This document shows positions 1,885 to 62,614 of a DNA stretch of 64,000 nucleotides, one piece after another. Both the position numbers and the translations under genes were made by a program. Under the pieces are notes generated by a model. It did not search any database. It was not told the DNA's origin and saw only the letters and a program-made list of their open reading frames with translations. Position 1 is the stretch's first letter, and every line of letters starts with the position of its first letter. Source of the stretch: an uncultured Chloroflexia bacterium (GTDB taxonomy: Bacteria; Chloroflexota; Chloroflexia; Chloroflexales; Herpetosiphonaceae); the NCBI GenBank assembly GCA_963767035.1, contig CAVYBW010000001.1:2438547-2502546 (forward strand). Direction: 5' to 3'.

Positions 1885-4178
1885 ATGCTAGCCCAATCCC
1901 ACCTTCATCATTCCCTCAGCAAAAGCCTTGGTTTAGGAGGTTTGCATGCGTCTACGGATTGGGTTTATCGGCCTCAGATCGCCTTGATTGGGTTAACGGG
2001 CAGTTTTCGCGCTTTCAAGCCCGTGCAAGCAGCGCCAGCACAACCAGCCAGTACATCCAACCAAGCCAACGCTCCGCAAGGTGCAGCCCGGATCAAAGAG
2101 CAGGAGAGCAACAACACGCCAGCAACTGCGAACCAAATCATTGGTCAGTCGGGAATTGTGCGTGGCTATATTACAGCCAATGATAGTGATTTCTTTGCAA
2201 TTCCACTCAGCAGTGGTCAACGCTTAGCTGCTGGAACCATGACTTCAGCCTCAGTTGGCACCGCAGATAGTATTTTAACGCTCTACCATCCTGATGGCAC
2301 AACCGTTGTAGAGTTCGATAACGATGATGGAGGTTTTGGCTCAACGGCATCAGTGATCAGTTCGGCCATTATCACGAATACTGGCACCTATTATCTTAAG
2401 CTCACAGCCAATAACACCACCAATAAAATTTATTACTACGATCTCTACCTGCGGGTATTGACAGCGCCCAACGCCTGAGCAGAGAGCCCAATAACCCAGC
2501 TCAACTGCTGCCGGCCAGCGGCATTGTCAGCGGGGTGGTTTCAACAACTGCGGATCTTGATATCTTTCAAGTAAGCGTGAATGCTGGCGATACGATTTTT
2601 GCGACGCTCGATATGGACCCAGAACGCGATGGCATAAGCTGGAATGGCCGACTTGGCATTGGCAATTTTAATGGCGCCCCCCTGATCGTGAATGATACTA
2701 ATGCCGTTTCGCCTAATGCTGAATTCTTCCCTATGACCGTGAAAGAAGCTGGTAACTATATTATTCGGGTTGATAGCACTGTGGCAGTAAACAACGGCAG
2801 CTATATACTACAAGTGCAAATTATCCCTGCCGAGGCTCAGATCAACTGCCAAACCTATATGAGCACCGATATTAATCAGACCATTCCGGGTGGCCCCGGC
2901 ATGATTACATCCACCCTAACAATCCCCAATACTGGGTTGATTGAAGATTTGGATGTGATTGTTCAGCTGGATCACACGTTTATTCCTGACCTTGACACCC
3001 TCTTAACCGCCCCTGATGGCAATAGTATTGCCTTATTCACTGATGTTGGGGTCTCAACTGTTGCCCCAGCAACCATGAATGTGGTTATCGATGATGAAGC
3101 CGCAATTCCACTCTTATCAGGGATAACTGTTTCTGGCACGGTCTCACTACCAGAACTTTATCGTCTGAGTTGGTTCGATGGACAACGCAGCCAAGGCAAT
3201 TGGACACTCACCCTGTATGACGATGCTTCAGGCGATGGTGGCACATTAAAAAATTGGGGCCTGCGGGTTTGTGCCGCCCCACCACCAGTTGATTGCCCCG
3301 ATGGTTCAACCGTTACCACAATCTATAGCAGCGATTTCGAATCAAGCAATGGCGGCTTTACCCATGCTGGCACAAATGATTCATGGCAATATGGCCAACC
3401 AAATTTTGCGCCAATTGTTGGAAGCTATAGTGGTCTCAATAGCTGGAAAACCAATCTGACTGGGCCTTATTCCGCGTCAATGAGCGCCAATTTAACCTCA
3501 CCAGCAATCGATCTGAGCGGTGTGGTTGGCCCAATTCAAGTCCAATGGCAACAGCGCTATCAGTTGGATACCGCGGTGAACGATAACTATTCAGTCAGTG
3601 TGCTCGGCAATACAACCCAAACCCTTTTTGATCACCGCGACGGAATTATGCGCGAAACGGTCGGTAATCCAGTGGTCACAATTCAACAAAGTACCGGCTG
3701 GAGCCGTCAACTGCACACTATTAATGATTTTGTCGGTCAATCAATTAATCTCCAATTTCACCTTGATAGTGATGCAGCAATTCAATTAGCAGGGGTAGCA
3801 ATTGATAATGTTCAGGTTACTGGTTGTCTTTTGAATCCAACCGCAACCGCAACCGCAACTGCAACTGCAACCAACACGCCAACTGCGACCGCAACCGCAA
3901 CCAACACGCCAACCACGACCAATACACCGATTGTCAGCGATACCCCAACCAACACGCCAACTGCGACCGCAACCGCAACCAATACGCCAACAATTACGGT
4001 TACACCGACCAATACTAATACGCCAACAATTACGGCGACACCCAGCAATACGCCAACCAATACCAATACACCAACGATCACAATCACACCAAGCCATACC
4101 CCAACGGCTACGCCAAGCGTAACCCCGGGGCCAACCCTGATTCCGGTCTATCTGCCGTGGGTTGGAAAAGATGCTTAA
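1885..4178 (+). CDS. Secreted multidomain protein, paralog B. Domain order: PPC, PPC, P-domain, beta-sandwich domain, long Thr/Pro/Ala linker. Frameshift near 2465, possibly a second near 1980. The start may be ATG 1946 behind RBS 'taggagg'.
   Basis: ORF 1885..2478 ends in '[12 protein letters not shown]'. The other frame continues with '[51 protein letters not shown]', which is the paralog A motif. '[25 protein letters not shown]' is the P-domain. The TATATNTPT repeats at 3830-4110 form the linker. Confidence 0.6.
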
Positions 4179-8764: not shown

Positions 8765-8782
8765 GTTTTCAAGCGAATTGGC

Positions 8783-8922
8783 GTTTCCTCACCCCCAACC
8801 TGCTCTCCCACGTTCGTCAGTGGGAGAGCAGGAGCACCTGTCTTCACCACGAACTGCGGCAGAACCATGGTGTTAAAGCTCTTCACCCGTTGAACGGGAG
8901 AGGAGCTGGGGTGAGGAAACGC
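8783..8922. mobile_element. MITE-like palindromic repeat, family A, with perfect 15-bp terminal inverted repeats
   Basis: Left end 'gcgtttcctcacccc' and right end 'ggggtgaggaaacgc' are exact reverse complements. Internal hairpins are 'ctgctctccca...tgggagagcag' and 'cccgttgaacggg'. The element lies in the opuCC-opuCA intergenic region. Confidence 0.65.
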
Positions 8923-8958
8923 AATCACTCACCAATTTAAGCTTAGGGAGTTGCAGGT

Positions 8959-13645: not shown

Positions 13646-13687
13646 TAGTAATACAGAACCACCTCAACATTCCAAAAAATGAATTTT

Positions 13688-13795
13688 AGGGGGTGCAGGG
13701 GGATTAAAGCCCCCTGCGTTTCCCTCCGGCGGAGGGACGGAAGGGTGGCGAACCATAGTGAGAACCAATAGATCTTTAACCACGAACTATGCTTG
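13688..13795. repeat. Dispersed structured repeat, family B
   Basis: 'gggggattaaagccccc' hairpin, 'tccctccggcggaggga' hairpin, then 'cggaagggtggcgaaccatagtg...ctttaaccacgaact'. Close copies lie at 21661..21712 and 21826..21905, with a fragment at 8840..8880. Confidence 0.6.
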
Positions 13796-13844
13796 ACATA
13801 GCCCAAAAGATTCTCTATACTCAGCTGGTAAGTGGTCTGACCAG

Positions 13845-14537
13845 TTGGTGAGTATGAGTGAATTACAACGACCAGCAGCGTATTGCGAACAACACTTGAT
13901 CAAAGCGATTATTGGTGGCAACTATGCCGCTGGTACGAGCCTGCCGAGCGAACGCGAGCTTGCTGGGCAATTGGGCGTTACCCGACCAACCTTGCGCGAG
14001 GCAATTCAACGCTTGGCACGTGATGGCTGGCTGGTGGTGCAGCAAGGCAAGCCCACCGTGGTTTGCAATATTTGGCAAGCTGGCGGTTTGGGCGTGTTGC
14101 GCAGTTTGCTGCAATATAGCAGCGAGCTACCAGCGCAAATTGTGCCGCAACTGCTAGCGGTGCGCTTGGATTTAGCACCAAGCTACACGGCAATGGCCAT
14201 CGAACAGCATGGCGAGCAAATCGAGGCCTTGTTGCAAACAGGTTTAGTTTTGGCCGATACTGCTGCGGCCTATGCCCAATTCGATTGGCAATTACAGCAT
14301 CAACTGACGATTGCTTCGATGAATCCAATTTATACCTTGATTTTAAATGGCTTTCGCGGCTTCTACCACATGATGGCCTTGGATTATTTTGCACTAGCGC
14401 AGGCACGTGAGCATTCAGCGGCATTTTATCGCACGCTGTTGCACGCTGCCAGCACTCACGATGTTGAGCTAGCGCGTGAGGCGAGCCGCGCTGCCATGCA
14501 CCAAAGCATTGAGTTTTGGCATGAATTAAATCACTAA
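13845..14537 (+). CDS. fadR: GntR-family transcriptional regulator, FadR subfamily
   Basis: 'LPSERELAGQLGVTRPTLREAIQRLARDGWLVVQQGKPT' closely parallels the E. coli FadR HTH region. The C-terminal domain is an all-alpha FadR_C-like fold. Confidence 0.7.
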   Translation: MVSMSELQRPAAYCEQHLIKAIIGGNYAAGTSLPSERELAGQLGVTRPTLREAIQRLARDGWLVVQQGKPTVVCNIWQAGGLGVLRSLLQYSSELPAQIVPQLLAVRLDLAPSYTAMAIEQHGEQIEALLQTGLVLADTAAAYAQFDWQLQHQLTIASMNPIYTLILNGFRGFYHMMALDYFALAQAREHSAAFYRTLLHAASTHDVELAREASRAAMHQSIEFWHELNH

Positions 14538-14555
14538 ATTAACAAAGGGGTTAGT

Positions 14556-16157
14556 ATGCGCCGTTGGAATGGTTGGGGCGATGAGAGCAAAGATTATGTG
14601 GTTAAAGCTGGTATTTTAGGCTTACTCAAGCAATTAATTGGGGTTGGCCCAATTCCCAGCGATGTAACCCTAGCCGAGGTTATTGCCCACGTGCCAGCAT
14701 CACGCTTGCCACACCACGACTTGATTAGCACTGATCCTGAGCTGCGAATTCGCCATGCTCGTGGCCAGAGTTTTGCCGATTTGGTGGCCTTGCGCAGCGG
14801 CGATTTGGGCCAAATTCCCGATGGTGTGGCCTTTCCCCAAACCAGCCAAGCGGTGCGCGAGTTGCTCGATTGGGCTAGCGCCAATACCGTAACCCTGATT
14901 CCCTATGGCGGCGGAACCAGCGTCGCAGGCCATATTAATCCAGTTGCTGGCGAACGGCCAATTTTGACCGTTAGCCTTGCCAAACTCAATCGCTTGCTGG
15001 AAATCAACCCAACTGCGCGGCTAGCACGGTTTGGGGCAGGCATCAAAGGTCCAGATCTGGAAGCACAATTGCGTGCTTTGGGCTTTACGCTCGGCCATTT
15101 TCCCCAATCGTTTGAGCTTTCGACGCTTGGCGGCTGGATTGCCACCCGTTCAAGTGGCCAGCAATCACTTGGTTTTGGGCGCATTGAGCAATTATGGGCT
15201 GGCGGACGAATTGAAACACCCCAAGGCGCATTAGAATTAGCGCCATTTCCGGCCTCGGCGGCTGGCCCTGACTTACGTGAAATGCTACTTGGCTCGGAAG
15301 GCCGCTATGGCATTATCACCGAAGCCACAGTACGCATTCGGCCAATTCCTGAGCTTGATGTGGTGCATGCAATCTTCTTCACTAATTGGGAACAGGCCCA
15401 AACTGCGGCCCGCACGATTGCCCAAGCCAACCTGCCGTTGGGAATGTTGCGGCTGAGCACGCCAACCGAAACCATGACCAACCTCGCCTTGGCAGGCCAC
15501 GAACGAGCGATTGGCTTGCTCGAAGGCTTTTTGAAATTGCGTGGCGTTGGCGCGGAAAAATGTATGCTGTTGGTTGGCTTTATTGGCAGCAAAGCCCAAG
15601 TTGCGCTCAGCCGCCAAGCAGTTTTGCGCTTGACCCGCCAACACGCTGGGGTGCATATCGGCCAAACCTTTGGCAAGGCATGGCGACATGGGCGGTTTCG
15701 CGCACCCTATTTGCGCAATCGGCTGTGGGAATTGGGCTATGGCGTGGATACGGTCGAGACTGCCACGACCTGGGAGAATCTCAACCCATTGTTAGAAACG
15801 CTAGAGCAGCGTTTGCGCAATGGCTTAGCTGCTGAGCACGAACAGGTGCATGTCTTCACCCATCTTTCACATTTCTACACTACTGGTTCCAGCATCTACA
15901 CTACCTATGCGTTTCGGCTAGGCGCTGATGCCCAAGCAACCATGGCCCGTTGGCACCAACTGAAAAGCGCTGCCAGCCAAGCAATTGTTGCCGCCGGCGG
16001 CACGATTAGCCATCAACATGGCGTGGGGCTTGATCATCGGCCCTATCTTGAGGCTGAAAAAGGCCGTTTGGGCATTGGCGCGTTGCAACAACTTGGCCAA
16101 CATTTCGACCCGCAAGGCTTGCTCAACCCCGCCAAATTATACGAGGATGGCCAATGA
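14556..16157 (+). CDS. FAD-linked oxidase of the alkyl-dihydroxyacetonephosphate synthase (AGPS) family
   Basis: 'RRWNGWGDESKDY', 'IPYGGGTSVAGH', 'ELSTLGGWIATRSSG', 'GSEGRYGIITEATVRIRPIPE' and 'ISHQHGVGL' track the conserved blocks of eukaryotic AGPS. The gene is 18 nt downstream of the fadR-like gene. Confidence 0.75.
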   Translation: MRRWNGWGDESKDYVVKAGILGLLKQLIGVGPIPSDVTLAEVIAHVPASRLPHHDLISTDPELRIRHARGQSFADLVALRSGDLGQIPDGVAFPQTSQAVRELLDWASANTVTLIPYGGGTSVAGHINPVAGERPILTVSLAKLNRLLEINPTARLARFGAGIKGPDLEAQLRALGFTLGHFPQSFELSTLGGWIATRSSGQQSLGFGRIEQLWAGGRIETPQGALELAPFPASAAGPDLREMLLGSEGRYGIITEATVRIRPIPELDVVHAIFFTNWEQAQTAARTIAQANLPLGMLRLSTPTETMTNLALAGHERAIGLLEGFLKLRGVGAEKCMLLVGFIGSKAQVALSRQAVLRLTRQHAGVHIGQTFGKAWRHGRFRAPYLRNRLWELGYGVDTVETATTWENLNPLLETLEQRLRNGLAAEHEQVHVFTHLSHFYTTGSSIYTTYAFRLGADAQATMARWHQLKSAASQAIVAAGGTISHQHGVGLDHRPYLEAEKGRLGIGALQQLGQHFDPQGLLNPAKLYEDGQ

Positions 16158-17759
16158 ACCCACGTTTGCAATGGAATGGCGCTTGGCGCGAACGCACGTG
16201 GCATGAGCTTGACCAGCCATGGGATGTGATCATCATTGGCGGTGGGATTACCGGAGCAGGCTTATTGCGCGAAGCAACCCGCTCGGGCCTCAAAGCCCTG
16301 CTGCTCGAAGCACGCGATTTTGCTTGGGGCACTTCAAGCCGCTCATCAAAATTAGTTCATGGTGGGCTACGGTATTTGGCCCAAGGCCAAGTGCGGGTAA
16401 CCTATGATTCAGTGGTTGAGCGCGAACAGCTCTTAAATGAAGCGCCAGGTTTAGTCGGGCCGTTGGGCTTTTTGATTGGCCTGCCACAGGGCAAACCGCT
16501 GAAACGTTGGGTTTATCAGGCTGGATTATTGGCCTACGATGCCCTTGCGCGACGCAGCGAACAGCATTATTTGAGCATGCCCAATTTGCGATTACTTGCG
16601 CCATACCTCAACGATGCCACATTAGCGGCTGGTTTGCGCTACAGCGATGCCCAAACCGATGATGCGCGTTTGGTTTTGCGCATTTTGCGCGAAGCAGCAG
16701 CAGCAGGCGCAACGTTATTAAATTACTGCGGCAGTTACGCAATTGGTGCGTGAAGATCAGCAAGTAGTTGGGGTTGTGGTGCGAGAGCAACTCAGCCAAC
16801 GCGAGCAAACACTCAAAGCTACAGCAGTAATCAATGCTACGGGCGTTTGGGTCGATCAATTGCGTCAACAGATTCAAGCGCCAGCTAAAATGCGCCCACT
16901 GCGTGGCAGCCATTTGGTGTTTGCCCAAGCCCAATTGCCACTGACACAAGCAATCAATTTAGAGCATCCCCGCGATCGCCGCCCGGTCTTTTTTGTGCCA
17001 TGGGAAGGCGTGAGCATCGTTGGCACCACCGACCTTGATCACGAGCCAGATTTGTGGCAAGAGCCAAGTATTAGCCCCGCTGAAGTTGATTATTTATTTG
17101 AAGCAGTTCAGAAGGCGTTTCCCAGTTTGGGTTTAGGCTTGAGCGATGTGATTTCGACTTGGAGCGGCGTGCGGCCTGTGGTCGATACCGGCGCGAGCGA
17201 TCCGTCCAAGGAATCGCGAGATTATGTCTTGTGGCAAGAGCAAGGCTTATTGACGGTAACTGGCGGCAAATTAACTACCTTTCGTTTGATCGCACTTGAA
17301 GCTTTGAAGCTATTACGCCAACGCTTGCCAAAAATCAAGCTTTGGCCGCATGCACCACGGCTCAATCCGGCTCCCGCTGATTTAGCTGGCAATCTCGCAC
17401 CGTTGATTAAGCAACGTTTGTTGGGGCGCTACGCCGCCGAAGCACCGGTGATGCTGCAACAATTGCCAGCCGCTGAATTTGGATCAATTGATGGTTTGCC
17501 AAGTTTATGGGCCGAAATGCGCTGGGCAGCTCGTTGCGAAGCAGTAACCAATTTGGGTGATTTGCTGTTGCGGCGTAGTCGTTTGGGCATATTACTAGCC
17601 CATGGCGCAGCCGCCTATCACGAGCAAATTCAGGCGATCTGTGCTGAGGAGTTGGGCTGGGACGCAGCACGCTGGCAAACTGAGTGGCATAGCTATCAAG
17701 CATTAATTGCCCAGCATTATGGCTTGCCAACCAGCCGTGTTAATGCTGCTCTAATTTGA
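16154..17759 (+). CDS. glpD: FAD-dependent glycerol-3-phosphate dehydrogenase (GlpD/GlpA-like). Frameshift near 16720-16730 splits ORFs 16154..16753 and 16743..17759.
   Basis: 'DVIIIGGGITGAG' is the FAD motif and 'SSRSSKLVHGGLRYL' follows. The second ORF continues with 'VVGVVVRE...VINATGVWVD...RGSHLV'. The start ATG overlaps the AGPS stop as ATGA. Confidence 0.75.
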
Positions 17760-17811
17760 CAATGACCCTAAGCAGGCTATAATGAAATCAAACCTTCTCC
17801 TCTCTCTTCTC

Positions 17812-17852
17812 TCCCACAAGCGGCTCCATTATGCGAGCCGTTTGTGGTTTAA
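17812..17852 (+). terminator. Stem-loop downstream of glpD, probable terminator
   Basis: 'ccacaagcggctc cattatgc gagccgtttgtgg' with one G-U pair, followed by 'ttt'. Confidence 0.5.
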
Positions 17853-17991
17853 GTGACATTTCACCACAGCAACCATGCAACCAATCATCAATCGCATCAA
17901 TTTGCTTGACGCAGACATTACATTGTGATATTTATAACATAGCAACCAATTAAAACCTGCTTACTCGCGGCTTGTGGATAAGGTGGCGTTG

Positions 17992-19245
17992 ATGAAGATC
18001 ACGATTCTGAGTTACGGTTCGCGCGGCGATGTGCAGCCATTCTTGGCACTTGGCCGAGCCTTGCATCATGTTGGGCATAGCGTTCAGTTGGTTGGCCCTG
18101 CCAATTTTGCCGAGTTAAGCCAAGCTGCGGGCGTGCCGTTCGTTTCAGTTGGGGTTGATCTTCAGGCGTATCTACGCGAACGCATCACGAGCTTATCAGG
18201 CTCACGCAACGTCATCAGCCTCTTAAAAAAGCTGCGCAACGAACTCAATGAGCTAATTGAGGAAATTGCCCATGAGACATTGCAGGCTTGCCAAGGCAGC
18301 GATTGTATCATTGGCGCAGGGCCACAAACTGCTAGTCTATCCCAAAAACTTGGGGTTCCATTTATTGAAGCCGTGCTTCAGCCAATGACTCCCACCCGTG
18401 CATTTCCCTCACCAATTGCCCCAAGCTGGCTCCAATTTGGTGGATTTGCCAACTATCTCAGCCACCTTGGGTTTGAGCAGATCTTTTGGCAGATCTTTCG
18501 GCCTACGGTCAATCGGGTGCGGACGCATGTGCTTGATTTGCCATCGTATGGCTTCAGCAGTCCGTTTGCCCAGATTCGCGAGCAGGTTTCACTGCGGCTG
18601 CATGCCTATAGTGCCCACGTAATGCCACGGCCAAGCGATTGGGCCGCCCAACATCAAGTAACGGGATTCTGGTTTCTGCCTCCACCCACCGATTGGACAC
18701 CACCCGCTGATCTCAGTGCTTTTCTGGCAGCCGGCCCTGCACCGATTTATATTGGCTTTGGCAGCATGATGGGTGGTGATCCACAGCAATTAACCGCGCT
18801 GGTGAGTGCCACCTTGGCTCGCTGCGGCCAACGTGGGATTTTAGCTGGCGGCTGGGGGGCGTTAGCCGAAACTGCAGAATCAACAGATCAGTTGTTTTTT
18901 GTTCAGGATGTGCCGCATTATTGGCTTTTACCACAAATGGCCGCGATCGTGCATCATGGCGGTGCTGGCACCACAGGCGCGGCTTTACGCAGTGGCAAGC
19001 CCTCGATTGTGGTGCCATTCGGCTTTGATCAAGCCTTCTGGGGGCGACGGGTGGCAGAGCTTGGCGTGGGTTCCGCTCCCGTTCCGCGCAAGCAACTCAG
19101 CGTTGATCGGTTGGCGAGCGCGATCACTCAAGTAACTAGCCAAGCAGCGATTCGCGAGCGGGCAGCGCAACTTGGTAGCCAAATTCAAGCTGAGTATGGC
19201 ACAGCGCAGGCAATCGATCATATCCATCGGGTCTTGCGCCGCTAA
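17992..19245 (+). CDS. GT1-family glycosyltransferase (UDP-glycosyltransferase, MGT/sterol-GT-like)
   Basis: N-terminal 'ILSYGSRGDVQPFLALGRAL' and C-terminal 'HHGGAGTTGAALRSGKPSIVVPFGFDQ' are UDPGT signatures. RBS 'aaggtgg'. An alternative GTG start is at 17974. Confidence 0.75.
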   Translation: MKITILSYGSRGDVQPFLALGRALHHVGHSVQLVGPANFAELSQAAGVPFVSVGVDLQAYLRERITSLSGSRNVISLLKKLRNELNELIEEIAHETLQACQGSDCIIGAGPQTASLSQKLGVPFIEAVLQPMTPTRAFPSPIAPSWLQFGGFANYLSHLGFEQIFWQIFRPTVNRVRTHVLDLPSYGFSSPFAQIREQVSLRLHAYSAHVMPRPSDWAAQHQVTGFWFLPPPTDWTPPADLSAFLAAGPAPIYIGFGSMMGGDPQQLTALVSATLARCGQRGILAGGWGALAETAESTDQLFFVQDVPHYWLLPQMAAIVHHGGAGTTGAALRSGKPSIVVPFGFDQAFWGRRVAELGVGSAPVPRKQLSVDRLASAITQVTSQAAIRERAAQLGSQIQAEYGTAQAIDHIHRVLRR

Positions 19246-19256
19246 TCGTCTCGGTT

Positions 19257-21392
19257 TTAGGCGATTTCTTCTGGCTCAAGCACTGGCAAATTCCACAATT
19301 CTTCGGGGACTTGCATATGAATCTGGGTGCCGCCCTGCTCAGGTGTGGAAATAGTCAGGCTGCCACCAATCACCATCAATAAACCGCGATGCAAACGCAA
19401 GCCACTGCCGCTGCCCGCTGAACTCGGCTGATTCGCCGCGATGCCCACGCCATCATCACAAATATCTACGACCAACCCATGTCGCCAATCGATCTGCACT
19501 TGAAGATTCAAGTGGCGGCGTGGGTCGTTGCCACGGGCATGGCGGGCAGCATTGCGCAGTGCTTCTTGCAAGGCATAGCTAATTACTTCGCCGATAAATT
19601 GCGGCGTATCAGCCAAACGAGCTTCAGCAGCAGGCGCAACCGTATATCCAACCTGATCAAAGGCATTGCCAAAATCAACCAGCACCATATCGTGCAGGGT
19701 TTGAGCCAAGCCACCTTGAGCTAAACGATAGGGCGTTGCTGGCGGCAAAGAACGAATCAGGGCTGAAAGCTTGGTATGCGCCTCGGATAAGGCCTTAATT
19801 GTTTGTTGCGCCATGGGATCGTTCGCTGAAACAGCGCTCAAATGAATCAAGGCAGCGTGAATTTGGGGCAAAACATCGTCGTGCAAGGTGCGCCGACCTT
19901 GACTACCCAACACTTTGACCTCGGCAATTCGTTGCCGCAGCACATCGCCTAACATTCGAGCCGCCCGTTCGCCCGCTAGCGCATCGGTCAAACGCGCACA
20001 GCAGGCCGCCGCAACTTCCATTAATTCTTCGCTATAAACCGCGCCGTTCTGCGGCGAACCAAGCACCAAAGCACCAGCTAAACCACGACCATCCCAGAGT
20101 GGGATGGCCCATTCAGCGCCACTTTGGGCCTTGAGCTGAATCCCTGATGTGCGGCGTTCTGATGAAATTGGCAATTGCTCAAGAATTGGAATTGGCGTTT
20201 GGCCCCAATGATAGCTGATGACTTTGGGCAAACCTGGCACTGCATCGCGTAGCAACAAACAGGCGCGTTCTGCTCGCAACACATCGCGGCTAATCGCCTC
20301 GACCAAGCCCTCGACTGAGGCCGAGAGACTAGCACCACCATCTAGCAAGCGATCTTGAAAGTGTAAACTGCCGACGAAAGGCCGTAAACGTTCCATAAAG
20401 GCCTCGTGCTCAACCCGATAGCGCCAACTTAACAAGCCATAAGCCAACGAGGCCAAGGTGGTGGCAAACAGCACAATATAAATCGAAGCCACTTCAAATG
20501 CGGCGCTAACCCCAACCATCAAAGCAAAACCACCAGCAATCGCCACCAGCCAGCGCCATTGATCGATGCGGTTCCATTGAGGTAGCGGGCGATCGGTAAA
20601 AGCCGCATAGGCGCCCATGGCTTGGCCAGCAGCACCCAAGGCCGCCGCCACCACGATCAACACCATCACATCCAATTGAAAAAGAGCTCGATCGCTCGAT
20701 CGGCCAGCCATGCTACTTCCGGCGTGCGCACCGATGAGCCTTGCGAAAAAACTACCACCGCGCCGATTAAGGCCACAATTCCGGCTAGCAAGCCAAGCAA
20801 CGATGTGCGAATCAGCCACGAACGCACCCGCAGCCACGCTTGATGCGGCAGATTATTGCGCCGACCAGGTCCAGTCAGCAAGGCATGAAATTGGCAAACT
20901 GAAACACATGATCAAGGCCAAAAGATAGCCAGCGACGATAAACGGCAAGTTGGCAACCAACCATGCTGGCACAAATTTCAAGGCCAAAATGCGGGCTTCT
21001 TGGGGCAATGGGTAAATCGCAGTCAGCACTAAGCCCAAAATCCCAATAAAAATGCCCATGGTAAACAACAGCAATTTATGAACGCGTAGGCTCTTGCCGC
21101 TCACCCCCGTATACCAGATCATCGTGGCATACCAAGCATACGGTGCGAGCAACGAAACCACGCTGATGACCCGCCACCAAAATGGTAGGCCCACATCAAC
21201 GACAGGTGGGCCACGCCCAATAATCGCCGCGTGAATCAAAAAGAACACGCCAGCCATCAGCAAGCCAGCCGCCGCCAAGCGTGGGCCACGTTCGCGCCCG
21301 CCATCAAGCGTCACGGTCATGCCCAACCATAAACAGATAATTGCATTGAAGATTGAAATTGCGAGGGCAATCGATTGCAGAATAAAAATCAT
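19257..21392 (-). CDS. Sensor histidine kinase. N-terminal multi-TM (7TMR-HK-like) domain, then GAF, HisKA and HATPase_c. Probably split by two frameshifts near 20840-20885 into ORFs 20853..21392, 20666..20881 and 19257..20837.
   Basis: C-terminal 'ICDDGVGIA...GSGLRL' is HATPase. A His-containing dimerisation helix sits around 'HDDVLPQIHAALIHL'. The 179-aa upstream ORF is entirely TM helices and a bridging ORF adds another TM helix. No response regulator is adjacent. Confidence 0.55.
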
Positions 21393-21425
21393 GGGCGCTA
21401 CCTATAAGCCAGTTATTTCATCATA

Positions 21426-21905
21426 CCAGCCTCAAACTAGCACCTAGGTGCAAAACCAACGTTCCCTCACCTCAACCCTCTCCTGACAAGGGTGGGTTTT
21501 ACAAAGACTTAGTGAATGTGGATGGTTATGATCCCCTCACCCCAGCCCTCTCTCCCGCCCGCGAGGCGAGGGGGAGTCATAGCTTGGTTGTGACGCTTCG
21601 AACCACACCATGGTAGATTCACCGGAAACCGTGTGCTAACTACCAAATATCCTCGAGGTGGCAGAGATTAAAGCATCTCCCTCAAGCAGAGGGACCGAAG
21701 GGTGGAGAACAAGGGATCAGGATTCAGTGGTCAGGGATGAGCAACTCGGAAACCGCAAAGCACGTGAAGAGCCGAAGCAAGGTTTGGGTATTAGGCAGCA
21801 TAACACTATTCCACAGCGTAAATATTCGGGGGATGAAAGCCCCCGCGTCTCCCTCCAGCTGAGGGACGGAAGGGTGGAGAATTTTGATTCAATCGTGAGG
21901 ACCAA
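21426..21905. repeat. Cluster of dispersed repeats: two family-A palindromic copies (21452-21582) and two family-B copies (21661-21712, 21826-21905)
   Basis: 'gttccctcacctcaaccctctcc', 'tcccctcaccccagccctctctcccgcccgcgaggcgaggggg', and 'gggggatgaaagcccccgcgtctccctccagctgagggacggaagggtggagaa'. These also explain the spurious 168-aa ORF 21658..22164. Confidence 0.65.
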
Positions 21906-21963
21906 AAGCTTTATGGCGGCGATCCCATTGCTGAGATCGCCGTTATTGCACCGAGATTTCAAT

Positions 21964-24102
21964 TTATTGGCAGGTGCCGCCATTAAGTTGGAAGGCATTG
22001 CTTGCCAAACTTGGCGGGCTACCAACACCTTGGAAACCAAAGTTGGCGGTACCACCATTGGCTGCGAGATAGCCGTTCCAGCCAGCGTTGCCGACAGTCA
22101 CCGCGCTACCAGTTTGGCTGAGCGTGCCATTCCACAGATTACTGATGGTTTGGCCGCCAGTTAAGTTGAACTTCAAGTTCCAGCCATTGATCGCACTTGC
22201 TTGGAGGTTGGTCACGGTAACATCGGCAATGAAGCCTGAACCCCATTGGCTGGTTACCTTGAAATCAACCCGACAACCGACTCCAGTGCTGGTTGGGCTA
22301 GCCGTTGGCACTTGGGTTGGTGTCCGCGTCGCGGTTGGTGCGGTGGTTGCCGTCGCGGTTGGCACTTGGGTTGGTGTCCGCGTCGCCGTTGGAATGCTAG
22401 TTGGGCTAGCCGTTGGAATCGTCGTCGCGGTCGAGGTTGGGCCAGTCGTTGGCGTGCGGGTGACGGTTGGAATGCCGGTTGCAGTCGCGGTTGGCACTTG
22501 GGTTGGCGTGCGCGTCGCAGTCGCGGTTGGCCCTGTGGTTGACGTTGGTTGGTTGCTATTCACCACACCAACGGTCAGATAGTCGGCGTAGATTGTTGCC
22601 GTACCAGTGTTGCCAGTCAGGGCATTGAATTCAACCCCCAACTCGCGCACTTGATTGATATCGGGCACGCCTGCTAATTCAATCGTCAGCAAGCTTGTAC
22701 CTGAATCAAGCAGCACTGTGCCACTATCTTTCCAATTCCAAGCACTACCAGTCTTGATGTAGAGCTTCGCGTTGAGACCGCTCCCAACATTTTGGGCACT
22801 CAAGCGAATTTGAATTCGTGATTGACCAGTCAAATTAAGCTCTTGGGCAATGCCAATGCTCGCAGGCGTAGCCGCCAAATTAACTTGTGCTTTGATCCCA
22901 CGTTGGCCGTTAGCGGCCCAATCAGTGGTTACAACCGGCCCTGAAACTAAATTCGAGCCAGTCCAGCCTTGCAGCGTGCCATCTTCAAAATCGCTAACCA
23001 CAATGCCGGGCAATGGCGTTGGAGTTGGCGTACCCGGCGTTGCTGTGGGAGCGATCCCAAGCGTACCATTCCAAAGTTGGCTAACATTGGTACGATTCAA
23101 GGTTGCCCAGTGGGCATAGGTGCTTTGAATCCGGCTATCGGTATTGCGATAAAACATATCGGTATGCCAGATCATAAAGTAGGCAAATGGGGCGCTGCTC
23201 AAAAGCGCAGGGTCCATCATATAGTCGGTTTCGCTGAGCGCTTTAATCTTGGTTTGTGAAAAACGCCCAAGATCTTCGTACCAGCTCACGTAGTTGCCTG
23301 AGGTTTCATTATAAACGTCGCTGCCCAAAATATCGGCCTGGCCAGCGGGATACCATGCCGTGCTGACTCCTTTGACCCCAGGTGTCCAAACCCAGATCAA
23401 GTTGTGCAAGCCACGAGTGGTGACCAAATAGCTGAACATATCGTCCCAGAGGCGGCGATAGTTGATGGCTCCGTTATCTTTATCCCACCAGAACCAACCG
23501 CCACCAGCTTCGTGGTAGGGTCGCCACAGCACTGGCACGTTGGCATCTTCCAGTTGTTGCAAATCATCGGCAATATTATCGAGCCAAATCAGATAATTGT
23601 TGCGTTCAGTTGTGCCGTTGACAAACATATTGTCAATATCAACCACCGTAAACATATCTTGGTGGTTGGTACCTTGGCTGGCAACGGGTGTCCAGTGTTG
23701 GCTGATGGTTGGAATAACTTTGGCGTTGGCCCAATCGCTGATGATCGCATCGATCATCCATTGACCATCATTGGGCAGTGCGCCGCCGATGGGAAAATCC
23801 CAGCCACGCAGCGCGGGGTAACGTTGAGGATTAGTGCGGGCATAAACTGCATTCGACATTTCGTCTTTGCGAGCATTATCCCAGTGAACTTCTTGCTGAC
23901 CGCCGAGCCAATACTGACCTTTGTATTGGTCAAAGCGATCGAGCACATTTTGGGCATACGGGGCGAGATTTGGATCGGCGGCTTGATAGGCGGTAATCGC
24001 GGCCTTGGTGCTATGCGTTGGCAACAAACTTAATGAACCAAGCACAACCCCAAGGAGCGCAATCGTCAACAACGACCGCGAACGGCTCAGGTTCGACCAC
24101 AT
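21964..24102 (-). CDS. Secreted GH26 glycoside hydrolase (beta-mannanase-like) with an internal CBM, Pro/Thr linker and C-terminal CBM2
   Basis: Signal peptide. 'WRPYHEAGGGWFWWDK' matches the GH26 catalytic-acid block. C-terminal 'CRVDFKVTSQWGSGFIADVTVTN...WNLKF...GGTCQ' is CBM2. Confidence 0.7.
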   Translation of the reverse strand: MWSNLSRSRSLLTIALLGVVLGSLSLLPTHSTKAAITAYQAADPNLAPYAQNVLDRFDQYKGQYWLGGQQEVHWDNARKDEMSNAVYARTNPQRYPALRGWDFPIGGALPNDGQWMIDAIISDWANAKVIPTISQHWTPVASQGTNHQDMFTVVDIDNMFVNGTTERNNYLIWLDNIADDLQQLEDANVPVLWRPYHEAGGGWFWWDKDNGAINYRRLWDDMFSYLVTTRGLHNLIWVWTPGVKGVSTAWYPAGQADILGSDVYNETSGNYVSWYEDLGRFSQTKIKALSETDYMMDPALLSSAPFAYFMIWHTDMFYRNTDSRIQSTYAHWATLNRTNVSQLWNGTLGIAPTATPGTPTPTPLPGIVVSDFEDGTLQGWTGSNLVSGPVVTTDWAANGQRGIKAQVNLAATPASIGIAQELNLTGQSRIQIRLSAQNVGSGLNAKLYIKTGSAWNWKDSGTVLLDSGTSLLTIELAGVPDINQVRELGVEFNALTGNTGTATIYADYLTVGVVNSNQPTSTTGPTATATRTPTQVPTATATGIPTVTRTPTTGPTSTATTIPTASPTSIPTATRTPTQVPTATATTAPTATRTPTQVPTASPTSTGVGCRVDFKVTSQWGSGFIADVTVTNLQASAINGWNLKFNLTGGQTISNLWNGTLSQTGSAVTVGNAGWNGYLAANGGTANFGFQGVGSPPSLASNAFQLNGGTCQ

Positions 24103-24334: not shown

Positions 24335-24454
24335 TTCAATCCTCTAGGCAGTTGTTTTTAGTAATAATTTAGACTTTACCTTTGGCGCGATCGTTGTCCA
24401 GCATAATTATTTGAGGCGTAATCAGTCGCATGTTGGGGATTCTAGTGGCTTGAA

Positions 24455-24648
24455 AGTTCCCTCACCCCCAGCCCCCTCTCCCACCTAGCGGGCGAGGGGG
24501 AGTCGGAAAACGAATAATCTTGCTTTTCCACACGGGGCGCGGAGGAGTCCTGATCCAAAAATGCTGGTTTCTCGATCCAATCTTGATCAAACCACCATAT
24601 CAAGCCCCTCTCCCGCTAGGTGGGAGAGGGGCTGGGGTAAGGGAACTT
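24455..24648. mobile_element. MITE-like element, family A (~194 bp) with ~21-bp TIRs
   Basis: Left 'aagttccctcacccccagcccc' and right 'ggggctggggtaagggaactt'. Sub-terminal hairpins are 'cccctctcccacctagcgggcgagggg' and 'cccctctcccgctaggtgggagagggg'. Confidence 0.65.
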
Positions 24649-26769: not shown

Positions 26770-27121
26770 CGATTCCCTCATCCCCCAACCTCACAAGGGT
26801 AGGTTTTTAACAATGGTATGGTTGGATGGACAAGAGTTCATGATTCCCTCACCCCCCAACCCCCTCTCCCACTAGACGCGGGCGAGGGGGCTTACGGGGC
26901 TAGGTTTTTAATCAAGGCTCGTGGTGCACCATTCCCCTCTCCCACTGGATGGGAGAGGGGGAGATGCCCTTGTTCACCGACGCATTGCGAACGAACCATT
27001 GTGTTAAAACCCCTCGCACGTAACGCGGGCGAGGGGTTGATGAGGGAACGCAACCAATCATTAAACCCTTGTAACAAGCCTCACTTGTCGAGCGATCAAG
27101 GGGTTGGATGTGAGGGAATCG
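26770..27121. mobile_element. Nested family-A palindromic repeats (outer TIR pair plus about three inner copies)
   Basis: Outer ends 'cgattccctcatcccccaacc' and 'ggggttggatgtgagggaatcg'. Inner pieces include 'tgattccctcaccccccaaccccctctcccactagacgcgggcgaggggg', 'cccctctcccactggatgggagagggg' and 'cccctcgcacgtaacgcgggcgagggg'. Confidence 0.6.
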
Positions 27122-28559: not shown

Positions 28560-28982
28560 GTGTCCAGACCCAAATTGATACAGCTTAGGAGGCTCTCAGT
28601 GTACAACTCATCATCAATTAGCCGCCGCATCCTACTCGCCTTCGCAACCTTCGGTCTGATTTTTGTCAGTTTTGTTTACACTGCCCTCACAAGCAGCCAA
28701 ACCCTTCAATTTGATACACCAGCAGCTTCCAACACCGCATGGCAATGGGGCGACATCGAAACCATTACCGTTACCCAGCAATTACAAACCGCGCCACTTA
28801 ACACCGCATGGCAATGGGGCGACATCGAAACCATTACCATTACCCAGCAATTGCAAACCGCACCACTGAATACCGCATGGCAATGGGGCGATATCGAAAC
28901 CATTACCGTCACCCAGCAATTACAAACCACACCACTAAATGTCGCTTGGCAATGGGGCAATATCGAATCAGGCAAGCTTTAG
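28560..28982 (+). CDS. Membrane-anchored protein with 3.6 near-identical 23-aa tandem repeats (NTAWQWGDIETITVTQQLQTAPL)
   Basis: N-terminal TM helix 'ILLAFATFGLIFVSFVY'. The 69-nt DNA repeats at 28731-28976 are about 95% identical. Confidence 0.55.
   Translation: MSRPKLIQLRRLSVYNSSSISRRILLAFATFGLIFVSFVYTALTSSQTLQFDTPAASNTAWQWGDIETITVTQQLQTAPLNTAWQWGDIETITITQQLQTAPLNTAWQWGDIETITVTQQLQTTPLNVAWQWGNIESGKL
28731..28976 (+). repeat. 69-bp tandem repeat x3.6 inside a CDS
   Basis: Units start at 28731, 28800, 28869 and 28938 (partial). Confidence 0.85.
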
Positions 28983-41266: not shown

Positions 41267-41295
41267 CAAGGCAATGGCTACGAGTGAGGTTTAAT

Positions 41296-41339
41296 ATTCC
41301 CTCACCCCAAACCCCTCGCCCACGACGCGGGCGAGGGGC
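41296..41339. repeat. Family-A palindromic repeat copy
   Basis: 'attccctcaccccaaacccctcgcccacgacgcgggcgagggg'. Confidence 0.6.
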
Positions 41340-41451
41340 GTTTGTTGATCCAGTTCTCACTGATTCGCATACGAAAAAGGTGCATGCTAATCAAGGAATG
41401 CGGACTCGATCAACCTAGTTAGCCGCTGCTCTTAACGCCTCAGAATGTTTG

Positions 41452-48678: not shown

Positions 48679-49006
48679 TCTCACCTCCTAGCCTGCTCTC
48701 CCTTCAAGGATAGGTTTTAACAAAGGGCTAGTGGATGGTCATATTAATAATCCCCTCACCCCCTATCCCCCGCTCCCACTGAACGCGGGCGAGGGCGAAC
48801 CGTGCCTCCATTTCCCATGGATCTGCGAAAACCACCATATGAAGCCCCAGCCCCGAGCCACGGGAGCGTGGCTGGGGTCAGGGCATCTTAACCGACTACC
48901 CTTGAACGCGGGCGAGGGGGAACCGTGCCTCCATTTCCCATGGATCTGCGAAAACCACCATATGAAGCCCCAGCCCTGTGGCGCGGGGCTGGGGGTGAGG
49001 GAATGC
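48679..49006. repeat. Family-A repeat cluster containing a ~110-bp direct duplication
   Basis: 'gaacgcgggcgaggg(c/g)gaaccgtgcctccatttcccatggatctgcgaaaaccaccatatgaagccccagccc' occurs at 48781-48868 and again at 48904-48991. The cluster ends in 'ggggctgggggtgagggaatgc'. Confidence 0.65.
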
Positions 49007-57274: not shown

Positions 57275-59860
<2,586 letters not shown>

Positions 59861-60035: not shown

Positions 60036-62614
60036 ATGTCTCGGCACTATTATGCCCGCGGGGCGATGTTGTTAGCCCTGCTAACAATGATTGGTGGTCT
60101 ATTGACCACTCAGAATGCCAAACCAACCGCCGCTGCTGCCAGTTGTGTTGTCACCTATCGCGTGCCCAATCAATGGGGCAATGGCTTCTTAGGCGATGTC
60201 AATATTCAAAATAATGGCGCTGCGATCAATAGCTGGACAGTTGGCTGGAGCTTTGCTGGCAATCAGCAAATTACCAACCTCTGGAATGGGGTTGTGACCC
60301 AAACTGGCCAAAACGTCAGTGTCAGCAACGCTGGCTGGAACGGTTTCATCGGCAGCGGTGGTGCTGTCAATGTTGGTTTCCAAGGAACCTACAGCGGAAG
60401 CAACGCCATCCCAACCGTGTTTACCTTGAATGGTGTGGTTTGTGGCGAAAACACGCCAACGCCAACCACTGGCCCAACCAACACCACGACCCCACCAACC
60501 GCAACCACGCGGCCAACCAATACCGTGGTTGTGCCAACCAACACGGCTGTGCCGCCAACCGCGACAACTCGGCCAACCAACACGGCTGTGCCGCCAACCG
60601 CGACGACTCGGCCAACCAACACGGCTGTACCGCCAACCGCAACCAATGGCCCAACCAGCACGCCACGACCAACGAGTATCCCAACGGTTGTGCCACCAAC
60701 CAGCACTCCAACCCTGCCAGGCGATGATACCTATGATCAACGCTTCTTGGAGCTGTATGCTGAATTGAAGAATCCAGCTAATGGTTACTTTAGCTCAGAA
60801 GGCGTGCCGTATCACTCAATCGAAACCTTGATTGTTGAAGCCCCTGATTATGGCCACGAAACCACATCCGAAGCCTATAGCTACTGGTTGTGGCTCGAAG
60901 CCATGTATGGCGAAGCAACTGGCAACTGGCAACCATTGGCCGATGCTTGGCGCAATATGGAAATGTACATCATTCCAACCAGCCAAGATCAACCATCGGT
61001 TGGGGCTTACAATGCCAATAGCCCAGCCACCTATGCTGGCGAATGGGAATTACCAAGCCAATATCCATCAGCCTTGCAAACCAACGTTTCAGTTGGCCAA
61101 GACCCAATTGCCGCTGAATTGCGCTCGGCCTATGGCACCAGCGATGTGTATGGCATGCACTGGTTGCTCGACGTTGATAACTGGTATGGCTATGGCCGCC
61201 GTGGCGATGGCACCAGCAAACCATCATATATCAATACCTTCCAACGGGGCGCACAAGAATCAGTTTGGGAAACCGTACCACACCCATCTTGGGAAAACTT
61301 CAACAATGGTGGCCCAAATGGCTTCTTGAATCTGTTCACTGGCGATGCTAGCTACGCTCGCCAATGGCGCTACACCAACGCCCCCGATGCCGATGCCCGC
61401 GCTGTCCAAGCGATCTATTGGGCAAAAGTGTGGGCCGACGAACAAGGTGGCTCACCGATCGTCAATGGCTTGGTAAGCAAGGCCGCTAAGATGGGCGACT
61501 ACTTGCGCTATGCCTTCTTCGACAAGTACTTCAAGCAAATTGGCTGTACTTCAACCTCGTGCCCAGCAGGCTCAGGCTACAGTAGCTCCCACTATCTGTT
61601 GTCGTGGTACTACGCTTGGGGCGGTTCGATCGGCAGTGGCGGCGCATGGTCATGGCGCATTGGCAGTAGCCACAATCACTTCGGCTACCAAAACCCAATG
61701 GCAGCCTGGATTTTGGGCAGCCAATCGGCTTTCAAGCCAGCCTCAACCAATGGTGCTCGAGACTGGAACACCAGTTTGACTCGCCAAATTGAGTTCTACA
61801 CCTGGTTGCAATCAAGCGAAGGCGCAATCGCCGGTGGCGCTACCAATAGCTGGAATGGCCGCTACGAAGCAGCTCCAGCTGGTACCAGCACCTTCTACAA
61901 TATGGCCTACGACGAAAAACCTGTGTACCACGACCCAGCAAGCAACACATGGTTTGGTTTCCAAGCTTGGTCAATGGAACGGGTCGCTGAATATTATTAC
62001 GCATCAGGCGATGTCAAAGCCAAAAACGTGCTCGACAAGTGGGTAACATGGGCTTTGGCCAACACCACCTTGACCAGCAATGGCAGCTATGAAATTCCAT
62101 CAACCTTGGCTTGGAGCGGCCAACCAGTTACCTGGAACGCCAGCAACCCAGCCACCAACACCAACTTGCACGTCACGGTCGTCGATAAAACCCAAGACGT
62201 GGGTGTTGCCGCCGCTTATGCCAAAACCTTGATGTACTACAGCGCCGCTACCAAGCGCTATGGCACCCAACACGTTGCTTCACAAACCATCGCCAAAGAA
62301 TTGATCGACCGGATGTGGACCCAGTATCGCGATGATAAGGGTGTTGCAAACCCCGAAACCCGCAAAGACTACAACCGCTTCGACGATTCAGTCTATGTTC
62401 CAAACGGCTGGACTGGCACCATGGCCAATGGTGATCCAATCAACAATTCATCAACGTTCTTGAGCATTCGCACCAAGTACGAAGATGATCCAGCCTTCCC
62501 AGCAGTGCAAGCCTACCTCAATGGTGGCCCTGCGCCAACCTTCACCTACCACCGCTTCTGGCTCAAGCCGATATCGCAATGGCTTACGCCGAATACGATC
62601 GCTTGTTCCAATAA
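60036..62614 (+). CDS. CBM2-linker-GH48 exocellulase (reducing-end cellobiohydrolase). C-terminal frameshift near 62556.
   Basis: N-terminal CBM2 '[23 protein letters not shown]'. The GH48 block '[37 protein letters not shown]' is present. After 'HRFW' the +1 frame gives the conserved end '[17 protein letters not shown]', with one G missing in 'tggg'. Confidence 0.8.

Follow-up and report, generated by a model that had tools for sequence, protein, structure and literature searches.

What kind of element is a short sequence that recurs three times on the same strand of one bacterial contig, laid out around two hairpins with conserved bases between and beside them? The question is raised by a 64,000-nucleotide stretch of contig CAVYBW010000001.1 (assembly GCA_963767035.1) from an uncultured bacterium of the Herpetosiphonaceae (Chloroflexota), which was analysed as a whole and is referred to here as the window. 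An original prediction, made from the letters of the window, had described the repeat, called Family B, at three loci with co-varying stems, and had proposed a small structured RNA or protein-binding element that is more than a MITE (miniature inverted-repeat transposable element). We consider the chances about even that Family B is a new genus-restricted structured dispersed repeat of the REP (repetitive extragenic palindromic)/BOX kind, non-coding and strand-polar. The structure was indeed found to be conserved and the features of a MITE to be absent, whereas no sign of a discrete small transcript was obtained.

Copies in the window and in related genomes

The core 17-mer GAGGGACSGAAGGGTGG has exact matches at three sites of the window (13732, 21689 and 21861, all on the + strand) against a chance expectation of 0.15, and three or more sites were reached in 0 of 100 shuffles. 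A covariance model, R1, was built only from copies of other genomes and run on the 64 kb with filters off; it recovered copies 1, 3 and 2 at 111.3, 66.0 and 38.7 bits and no other site (Table 1). The three copies are thereby confirmed, but they are not equivalent: both hairpins are present in copies 1 and 3, as judged by reading and by alignment of the copies, whereas copy 2, first described at 21661–21712, is decayed and lacks hairpin 1. Its R1 alignment contains many non-pairs in hairpin 1, and its folding z-score is -0.25.

The limits of the repeat had to be redrawn. The extents proposed for the other two copies, 13688–13795 and 21826–21905, overran into unique flanking sequence; similarity ends at 13752 and 21881 (at 21709 in copy 2), at …GGTGGCGAA. 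They also omitted the conserved 5' G-run and a 5' extension. Copy 1 starts at about 13685 for the core and at 13653–13671 when extended. BLAST edges of this copy against other genomes fall at 13653, 13666, 13671 or 13685 on the left and at 13752 on the right. A "related tail", gaaccatRgtg…accacgaact, had been added to the family at 13760–13800 and 8840–8880. Traced to 13750–13788 and 8846–8872, it dissolves into two short motifs in permuted order outside the family boundary. These are an 11-mer and a 10-mer, both present twice and exceeding chance by a small margin only (5 matches where 1.9 are expected, and 6 where 2.0 are), and the site at 8840–8880 is a member of another repeat family (D10).

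One genome per species was scanned for the core. Among the matches listed are Herpetosiphon aurantiacus, H. giganteus, H. geysericola, H. llansteffanensis, Herpetosiphon sp. NSE202 and a metagenome-assembled genome of the Herpetosiphonaceae; as far as these sequence matches go, the Family B element is restricted to this family. Matches in other phyla were mostly the C variant in a conserved coding context, which looks like the EGPKGGPGM motif of dihydroxy-acid dehydratase, and the rest were scattered single matches. No match to the element was found in the plasmids, phages and viral contigs searched. At least 8 copies were found in H. aurantiacus, at least 13 in H. geysericola and at least 12 in H. 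giganteus. Those of H. aurantiacus DSM 785 include CP000875 4,912,184–4,912,280 (-), 1,871,860–1,871,956 (+) and 4,917,222–4,917,319 (+). With R1, 52 copies were gathered from 0.38 Mb of sequence. Among the papers searched, none connects Herpetosiphon with REP, REP-associated tyrosine transposase (RAYT), MITE or the Family B motif. A "mobile promoter" reported for H. aurantiacus spans four phyla, and its identity with Family B is not established (PMC3488235).

Anatomy and boundaries

The consensus of the family reads aaCAaTCCAcnAAaTaAAtaTT-aGGGGG-TGCaGGGGG-ATGAAAA-CCCCCtGCG-TT-TCCCTCC-GGC-GGAGGGA-CGGAAGGGTGGCGAA. The 68-nt core often has a variable 5' extension of 20–35 nt in front of it. Copies were compared in 1448 pairs, and in most of these the 3' edge deviates from the final A by no more than -2 to +3 nt; family-wide similarity stops right after …GGTGG(C/A)GAA. 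In the same comparisons the 5' edge is nested and not unique, with modes at -67/-68 (the commonest) and at -82 to -87. Directly before hairpin 2 the majority of copies have CGTT, and subfamilies have CGTC. Whether the base two positions 5' of this hairpin is T or C goes together with which tail variant (C, A or T) a copy has. A subfamily, B2, has hairpin 2 as TCCCGCC-TTGA-GGCGGGA and a tail ending in GGTGA(T/A); H. aurantiacus, H. giganteus and NSE202 each contain both this subfamily and the main form. Decayed or internally deleted copies comprise window copy 2 and the copies at L008, L046, L057, L059 and L113.

Tandem direct copies, 152–261 nt apart, stem from duplication of whole mosaic segments, as in a 261-bp tandem duplication in L075 relative to L002. 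No inverted (head-to-head) partners were found; reverse-strand R1 matches are only the hairpins' own palindromes. Terminal inverted repeats are absent, the ends sharing at most CCAC/GTGG, and no duplicated flank is visible in 40 aligned copies. With neither terminal inverted repeats nor target-site duplication, a MITE is ruled out. Insertion into palindromes, or an enclosing outer stem, was likewise rejected: flank duplex energies of 44 copies were no better than those of mismatched flanks (p = 0.08), and flanking inverted repeats were seen in a few copies only (L026, L114, L031 and L078).

Roughly one copy in two has short tandem units of the CACGAAG/CCACGAAT type nearby, oriented like the element itself. 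Within 200 nt of copies, 114 units of the NACGAA type share the strand of the element and 29 lie opposite to it, the background being about 20 per flank and strand; in the window, CCACGAA occurs at 17 sites versus 7.7 expected. The association is thus strand-locked.

Two hairpins with compensatory changes

RNAalifold predicted two hairpins for the element. In the 52-copy alignment, which was fitted to the model and is hence tilted toward the structure, 98.1% of the pair cells hold standard pairs and 5 of 16 pairs are changed on both sides; these values were reached by 0 of 500 shuffles, and controls with slid partners gave 56–70%. One pair of hairpin 1 is AU in 32 copies, UG in 12, CG in 4 and UA in 1, and another is GC in 45, CG in 2 and AU in 1. 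Covariation of hairpin 2 was observed in copies ascertained through hairpin 1 only, by a metagenome scan with GGGGGATGAAAACCCCCNGCG. Here a T-A pair is replaced by G-C in TCCCGCC/GGCGGGA (B2) and by C-G in CCCCTCC/GGAGGGG (metagenome). The co-varying stems claimed at the outset hardly show in the three window copies alone, but over 52 copies compensatory changes are found in both hairpins. A larger set of copies had been named as the material on which the structure would stand or fall, and both the 52 copies and the orthologous pairs described below contain such changes.

Since U-G cells are frequent (60) and non-pairs rare (at most 15 in the 52-copy alignment), whereas the complement would carry C-A mismatches in place of U-G, the G-rich strand would be the one whose folding is conserved. 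This pattern points to folding of the G-rich strand as RNA or as single-stranded DNA, which fit equally. Predicted fold energies are -30.6 kcal/mol for the G strand and -28.5 kcal/mol for the complement, z = -3.3.

Two alternative pairings are energetically competitive. Hairpin 1 can be extended by four G-U pairs, in RNA only, and the 5' arm of hairpin 2 can pair with the tail, an arrangement favoured by the minimum-free-energy fold. In the metagenomic lineage L117 arm, partner and tail are changed in concert. The arm/tail pairing is contradicted by B2, in which only the proximal arm compensates and the tail is unchanged.

Constraint and turnover at orthologous loci

Five orthologous pairs could be compared between species. 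Identity amounts to 324/340 positions in the core (95%) and 89/121 in the 5' extension (74%), compared with 187/300 in the 60 nt upstream (62%) and 237/300 in the 60 nt downstream (79%). The core thus evolves about six times slower than its flanks. Its few differences are largely compensatory, for example CGCTGGGGG/CCCCCGGCG in L012 versus TGTCGGGGG/CCCCCGACG in L055, and hairpin 2 is of the main type in L026 but of the B2 type in L114. Because every genome contains A-U as well as U-G variants of hairpin 1, and orthologous copies have the same variant, conservation operates locus by locus and not through homogenisation within the genome. In resident copies the two hairpins and the G-rich flanks are maintained by purifying selection; as the core changes more slowly than the flanks, Family B is more than decaying selfish DNA.

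At the same time, Family B is gained and lost between species at orthologous spacers. The spacer between a GH39 gene and fadR measures 199 nt in the window, with Family B on the + strand; 650 nt in NSE202, with a B2 copy on the other strand and at a different position; and 430 nt in H. llansteffanensis, without Family B. The fadR promoter and operator are kept in all three, and the FadR protein of the window is 82–84% identical to FadR of named Herpetosiphon species. The open reading frame (ORF) at 20853–21392, taken as a second orthologous anchor, gave two fragmentary homologues and no usable locus.

A side observation concerns the fadR promoter itself. TTGACA-17-TATACT, followed by the palindrome TGGTCTGACCA, lies at 13793–13846 of the window and is also found upstream of fadR in three other Herpetosiphon genomes, whether Family B is present or not. 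The palindrome resembles a FadR operator, and its conservation together with the promoter suggests autoregulation.

Position relative to genes, promoters and terminators

To place the copies, the longest ORFs that do not overlap and reach at least 80 aa were taken as genes. By this measure each of the 45 copies examined falls between genes. For 38 of them both neighbours were called: 18 copies have the orientation of both, 13 are opposite to both, 4 are divergent and 3 convergent. In 34 of the 38 the flanking ORFs are unidirectional or convergent; the gene end closest to a copy is in most cases a 3' end, and most copies are located 14–170 nt past a stop codon, in either orientation. The downstream gene runs in the same orientation in 22 cases and in the opposite one in 19.

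Association with particular gene classes had been suggested as a check. Orientation to the neighbours is mixed, and no class recurs among them: 119 neighbouring ORFs carry 166 Pfam families, none of them in more than three ORFs (all-against-all BLAST and Pfam). The neighbours are housekeeping genes unrelated to one another; dnaX and genes for a GH31 enzyme, an adenylate cyclase and parts of ABC transporters are among ten upstream genes that were looked at one by one. An association with a gene class or a transposase was therefore rejected for these 119 + 10 ORFs, and no transposase was present among the 25 Pfam families listed, which are those that most members have in common, nor among these ten genes. 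One B2 copy separates an ABC substrate-binding gene from the permease gene that belongs to the same operon, the kind of spacer in which REPs of Escherichia coli and Salmonella stabilise the upstream mRNA segment.

Sigma-70-like sites, the one promoter type scanned for, were found upstream of 8/52 copies versus 7/52 on the opposite strand, and their distances vary widely. The organism does have promoters of this type, since the scan detects the genuine fadR promoter. A terminator-like site lies downstream of 1/52 copies. The window copies have no terminator-like site and no U-tract after either hairpin on either strand, the sequence after the stems being GUUUCCC and CGGAAGG. Orientation relative to replication, judged by the local GC skew, was 23 versus 23, and the 8-kb skew mainly tracks the gene strand.

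These results speak against three simple assignments. Family B is not a riboswitch or regulon-specific leader, as it has no constant position or orientation upstream of related genes. It is not a canonical terminator, as no GC-rich hairpin stands directly before a U-tract, and it is probably not a self-contained small RNA (sRNA) gene, as its own sigma-70 promoter and terminator at a conserved distance are missing.

Comparison with known repeat classes

In many respects Family B is like REPs and bacterial interspersed mosaic elements (BIMEs): short, GC-rich, extragenic hairpin repeats that are 3'-proximal, lie between unidirectional or convergent genes and are long conserved. It shares with REPs the occurrence, seen once, between binding-protein and permease genes, and its conserved unpaired CGT(T/C) before hairpin 2 may correspond to the short tag beside the stem of REPs. 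REP families have been defined to include GTAG- and CGTC-tagged ones (PMC3733652); the stem of the CGTC-tagged REPs starts with A-T pairs, unlike that of Family B, and stem/loop geometry differs. Family B also differs in its host phylum, Chloroflexota, and in that no RAYT was seen near it among the 119 neighbouring ORFs.

A second group of relatives in kind is formed by BOX and RUP of Streptococcus pneumoniae, Correia and ERIC, which are modular, non-coding, structured intergenic repeats without a transposase of their own and embedded in transcripts. Family B is modular as well, with variable module composition. It has no sequence similarity to these repeats, lacks terminal inverted repeats, and differs in its strict strand polarity and its conserved G-rich single strands.

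For a dispersed repeat of the REP/BOX kind, new copies would be made by a trans-acting activity that recognises the hairpins and the conserved tail on single-stranded nucleic acid, perhaps by a logic resembling that of HUH/Y1 transposases on REP and IS200/IS605 ends, and local tandem duplication would add further copies. Their retention may be due to stable hairpins acting on transcripts that run through them. By analogy with REPs between binding-protein and permease genes, the hairpins might shield upstream mRNA from 3' exonucleases or mark processing points.

Several points weigh against this assignment. Where a REP is a single palindrome of 20–40 nt, Family B has two distinct hairpins in fixed order over 68 nt; it lacks a GTAG tag and inverted dimers or REPINs, occurring as singletons and direct tandems only; and it reaches tens of copies (at least 8–13 per genome found), not more than 100. 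The invariant unpaired 5' GGGGG and CGGAAGGGTGG are not accounted for by hairpin function alone. A role in mRNA that is purely cis-acting is hard to reconcile with strong strand polarity when 40% of the copies are antisense to the genes on both sides; at such copies read-through RNA would carry the complement, in which U-G becomes C-A. The gene calling behind the orientation statistics was crude. No mobilising enzyme was seen in the 0.38 Mb around the 52 copies. The case for mobility comes from species whose proteins have diverged by about 16% and which differ in the presence or orientation of copies, no precise pair of empty and filled sites having been found. Finally, the copies were ascertained by an exact 17-mer, which inflates the apparent conservation of the tail and is only partly offset by the hairpin-1-anchored metagenome scan with GGGGGATGAAAACCCCCNGCG (8 loci). 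The tail CGGAAGGGTGGCGAA is retained even in copies ascertained via hairpin 1 alone.

A possible structured RNA and its Rfam look-alikes

Some of these difficulties would be eased if Family B were a multi-copy structured non-coding RNA, made as its own transcript or by processing, whose G-rich single strands (5' GGGGG, CGGAAGGGUGG) bind protein or C-rich RNA. We regard this, the main rival reading, as rather unlikely. Both stems covary, G-U is abundant on one strand only, individual copies are under purifying selection, and the invariant unpaired segments are explained better than by a REP-like repeat. The RNA-only extension of hairpin 1, the competitive arm/tail pairing and the concerted change in L117 would fit as well. 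However, the promoter signal is at background and terminators were found at 1/52 copies, the compensation of the proximal arm in B2 with an unchanged tail argues against tail pairing, and such an RNA is hard to square with copies that come and go between species.

Such an RNA could be distantly related to one of two orphan Rfam motifs, Clostridiales-2 or wcaG. The Rfam scan that had been proposed as a check came out empty for the window at gathering thresholds, and targeted E-value scans gave only sub-threshold matches to wcaG, Clostridiales-2 and Whalefall-1. Clostridiales-2 (RF02937) scored 19–25 bits in 9/10 loci, with E = 3e-4 in the targeted search, against a gathering score of 58.6. Its first approximately 38 consensus positions (AuAAAauaGGGggUGcaGgGGg-loop-cCCcCugC) almost match the A/U-rich leader, G-run and hairpin 1 of Family B, whereas the central 27–34 model positions and the 3' block do not align. 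We rejected membership, as the scores are below gathering and confined to hairpin 1, and an unrelated viral hairpin scores equally (26 bits).

That hairpin, GTAAATTAGGGGGTGCAGGGGGAAGCGTCCCCCTGC, is located between two phage genes in a viral sequence (L249 1718–1799; the same in L259 and L266), reaches 26.4 bits with RF02937 and has an A/T-rich leader in common with Family B and the Clostridiales-2 consensus. The hairpin-1 module may be common to Family B, Clostridiales-2 and phage hairpins by descent or by convergence. The hairpin-1 motif by itself, GGGGGTGCAGGGGG-loop-CCCCCTGC, was met in roughly ten different viral sequences; these matches are mostly coding or unrelated, and for some the coding nature is clear. 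Exact copies occur in L246, L250, L257, L264, L268 and L269 (4.3–4.7 kb; L250 7.8 kb with two matches), contigs of Microviridae size, where the motif in frame encodes GGAGG(S/T)PPAE… up to the stop codon, followed by a T-run terminator. Because it reads in frame as GGAGGxPPA, this Gly/Pro-coding viral palindrome mimics hairpin 1.

With wcaG (RF01761), a window copy reached 28.1 bits (E = 7e-4) in a full-length alignment and another copy 17 bits, the gathering score being 42. The order of blocks is alike: GGUGC, a G/C hairpin with a 7-nt loop, GUUUC, a second hairpin and GUGGCGA. The wcaG RNA is a riboswitch candidate of marine cyanophages (PMC2864571). It differs from Family B in its position in the 5' untranslated region and in the terminator that follows, neither of which Family B has. 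Based on 116 real wcaG RNAs from viral contigs, a reciprocal R1 search of 0.88 Mb of wcaG-bearing viral contigs was negative; with scores below gathering, membership was rejected here as well. The full-length match and that to Clostridiales-2 speak for a structured RNA, but the scores lie far below gathering, a viral hairpin equals the Clostridiales-2 score and the wcaG reciprocal test is negative. Such weak matches in Herpetosiphon spacers should not be taken as memberships.

Two observations were made alongside. The wcaG RNAs in L125–L244 (IMG/VR) contain an internal duplication, GGTTTC-hairpin-GTGG(T/C)G, present twice; the CC-NGG stretch ahead of the second GTTTC and the last hairpin's loop covary, and in most an intrinsic terminator lies 10–25 nt past the motif. 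A pan motif RNA (RF01749) was recognised with the same Rfam library at L058 818–902 in H. giganteus, orthologous in L083, at 42.8 bits against a gathering score of 36.2. A TTGACA…TACAAT promoter precedes it, a Family B copy lies about 150 nt upstream, and the block that contains it is about 98% conserved between species.

In a bolder form, Family B would represent an undescribed Chloroflexota class of strand-specific two-hairpin RNA of about 70 nt, processed from read-through or antisense transcripts, with invariant G-rich single strands (5' GGGGG, CGGAAGGGUGG) binding protein or C-rich targets; we think this unlikely. In such an RNA two competing folds might act as a switch (G-U-extended hairpin 1 versus hairpin 2, and proximal arm versus tail), and an ancient 5' module, UAGGGGGUGCAGGGGG-loop-CCCCCUGC, might be in common with Clostridiales-2 and phage hairpins.

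Possible transposon ends or terminators

Family B could also be a purely selfish palindrome-associated transposable element (PATE) derived from the ends of HUH transposons of the IS200/IS605 or IS91 type, hairpin conservation then reflecting transposase recognition only. Hairpin 1 would be the left-end hairpin, and hairpin 2 with the 15-nt tail the right end. Like such ends, Family B has subterminal hairpins without terminal inverted repeats or target duplication, hairpin 1 near the 5' end and hairpin 2 15 nt from a sharp 3' end. Polarity is that of a single strand: the strand-specific T-G tolerance fits recognition of top-strand single-stranded DNA, and the association of the base two positions 5' of hairpin 2 with the tail variant, as well as presence/absence and the orientation switch at an orthologous spacer, agree with this origin. 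Orientation relative to local GC skew is uninformative. Against it, no tnpA/tnpB partner was seen in the 0.38 Mb around the 52 copies and no transposase gene beside them (Pfam families listed and ten upstream genes), the left boundary is not unique, and tandem direct copies come from segmental duplication. Above all, purifying selection acts on resident copies: between orthologues they are 95% conserved compared with 62–79% in the flanks, and variants are inherited per locus, which would not be expected from selection for transposability. We hold a purely selfish origin to be quite improbable.

Very improbable, in our view, is an orientation-independent terminator or insulator after genes: two GC-rich hairpins fold on either strand, most copies follow a stop codon in both orientations, and copy 1 is the sole structure between the GH39 gene and the fadR promoter, but no U-tract follows the hairpins on either strand, the terminator scan finds none, some copies are intercistronic in operons or lie in divergent spacers, the orthologous spacer of H. 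llansteffanensis does without the element, and the strand-specific G-run and tail would have no role.

Other repeats and sequence features

The coordinates of the Family B copies, their parts and other repeats are collected in Table 1.

Table 1. Positions of Family B copies, their parts and other repeats (window coordinates unless a locus is named)
Feature	Position	Strand	Remarks
Copy 1, intact full length (5' extension and 68-nt core)	13653–13752	+	R1 111.3 bits over 13662–13758
Copy 1, 68-nt core (TTTA, G-run, hairpin 1, hairpin 2, G-rich tail)	13685–13752	+	100% identity to H. aurantiacus copy L017 over exactly that span
5' G-run GGGGG, unpaired	13689–13693	+	nearly invariant columns in the 37-copy alignment A2; the two-hairpin model gives no account of it
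Hairpin 1, TGCAGGGGG / loop ATTAAAG / CCCCCTGCG	13694–13718	+	9 pairs including one U-G; RNAalifold prediction
Hairpin 2, TCCCTCC / loop GGC / GGAGGGA	13721–13737	+	7 pairs; invariant in most copies
G-rich 3' tail CGGAAGGGTGGCGAA, up to sharp 3' boundary	13738–13752	+	invariant in alignment A2
CCACGAA unit	13780–13786	+	accompanying co-oriented short-repeat module, outside the Family B element
Copy 2, decayed	21630–21709	+	hairpin 1 destroyed; hairpin 2 TCCCTC/GAGGGA and tail CCGAAGGGTGGAGAA retained; R1 38.7 bits
Copy 3	21801–21881	+	hairpin 1 cut to CGGGGG/CCCCCG, G-run gone, hairpin 2 of 6 pairs, tail intact (…GGTGGAGAA); R1 66.0 bits
Second repeat family	8780–8925, 21525–21576, 24449–24643, 26837–27036, 41290–41364, 48744–49006		
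Tandem-repeat mosaics	L075 2350–3300, L099 6150–6800, L066 4350–5200, L121 2320–3010, L124 2540–3010		

A second repeat family (CCCTCACCCC…CCTCTCCC-loop-GGGAGAGG…GGGGTGAGGG) is more abundant than Family B and often occurs as inverted halves (D8–D11, D14, D17 and D18); one of its copies shares a spacer with copies 2 and 3 of Family B. Short tandem repeats with periods of 7–10 nt make up mosaics in Herpetosiphon spacers, namely CACGAAG/CCACGAATT, CACAGATTGT, GGGATCAGG, CCATAGCC, GAATTATGA, AACATAG and GTCAAAA. Degenerate periodic repeats of 6–18 nt (ACNCCAAC type and complement) are located in the window at 1642–1740, 3838–4135, 22262–22545, 59306–59534 and 60445–60685; they appear to be low-complexity linker-coding sequence, and the block at 22262–22545 lies inside a mannanase gene (21964–24102). 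Three near-perfect tandem copies of 69 nt are found at 28731–28967.

Just past the stop codon of the mannanase gene, which is on the - strand, an inverted repeat GGCGATC…GATCGCC is present at 21915–21945, with copy 3 at a distance of 35 nt. This repeat may form a terminator hairpin, unscored by the consensus scan since it has no T-run. The ORF at 20853–21392 (- strand, 179 aa) has no Pfam domain, and its two homologues are the only ones among 5.8 billion proteins, both fragmentary (100–108 aa). It may not be a real gene, in which case the spacer of copies 2 and 3 would exceed 570 nt.

Significance

Small structured dispersed repeats have so far been characterised mainly in Proteobacteria and Firmicutes, and Family B comes from the deep-branching Chloroflexota. 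It accounts for recurrent conserved blocks in Herpetosiphon intergenic regions that are absent from Rfam, and it offers a defined 68-nt substrate for finding the recognising enzyme or a binding protein. Being under purifying selection at individual loci across the whole divergence of the genus, Family B provides a clean case for the debate on whether REP-like elements are selfish DNA or domesticated modules.

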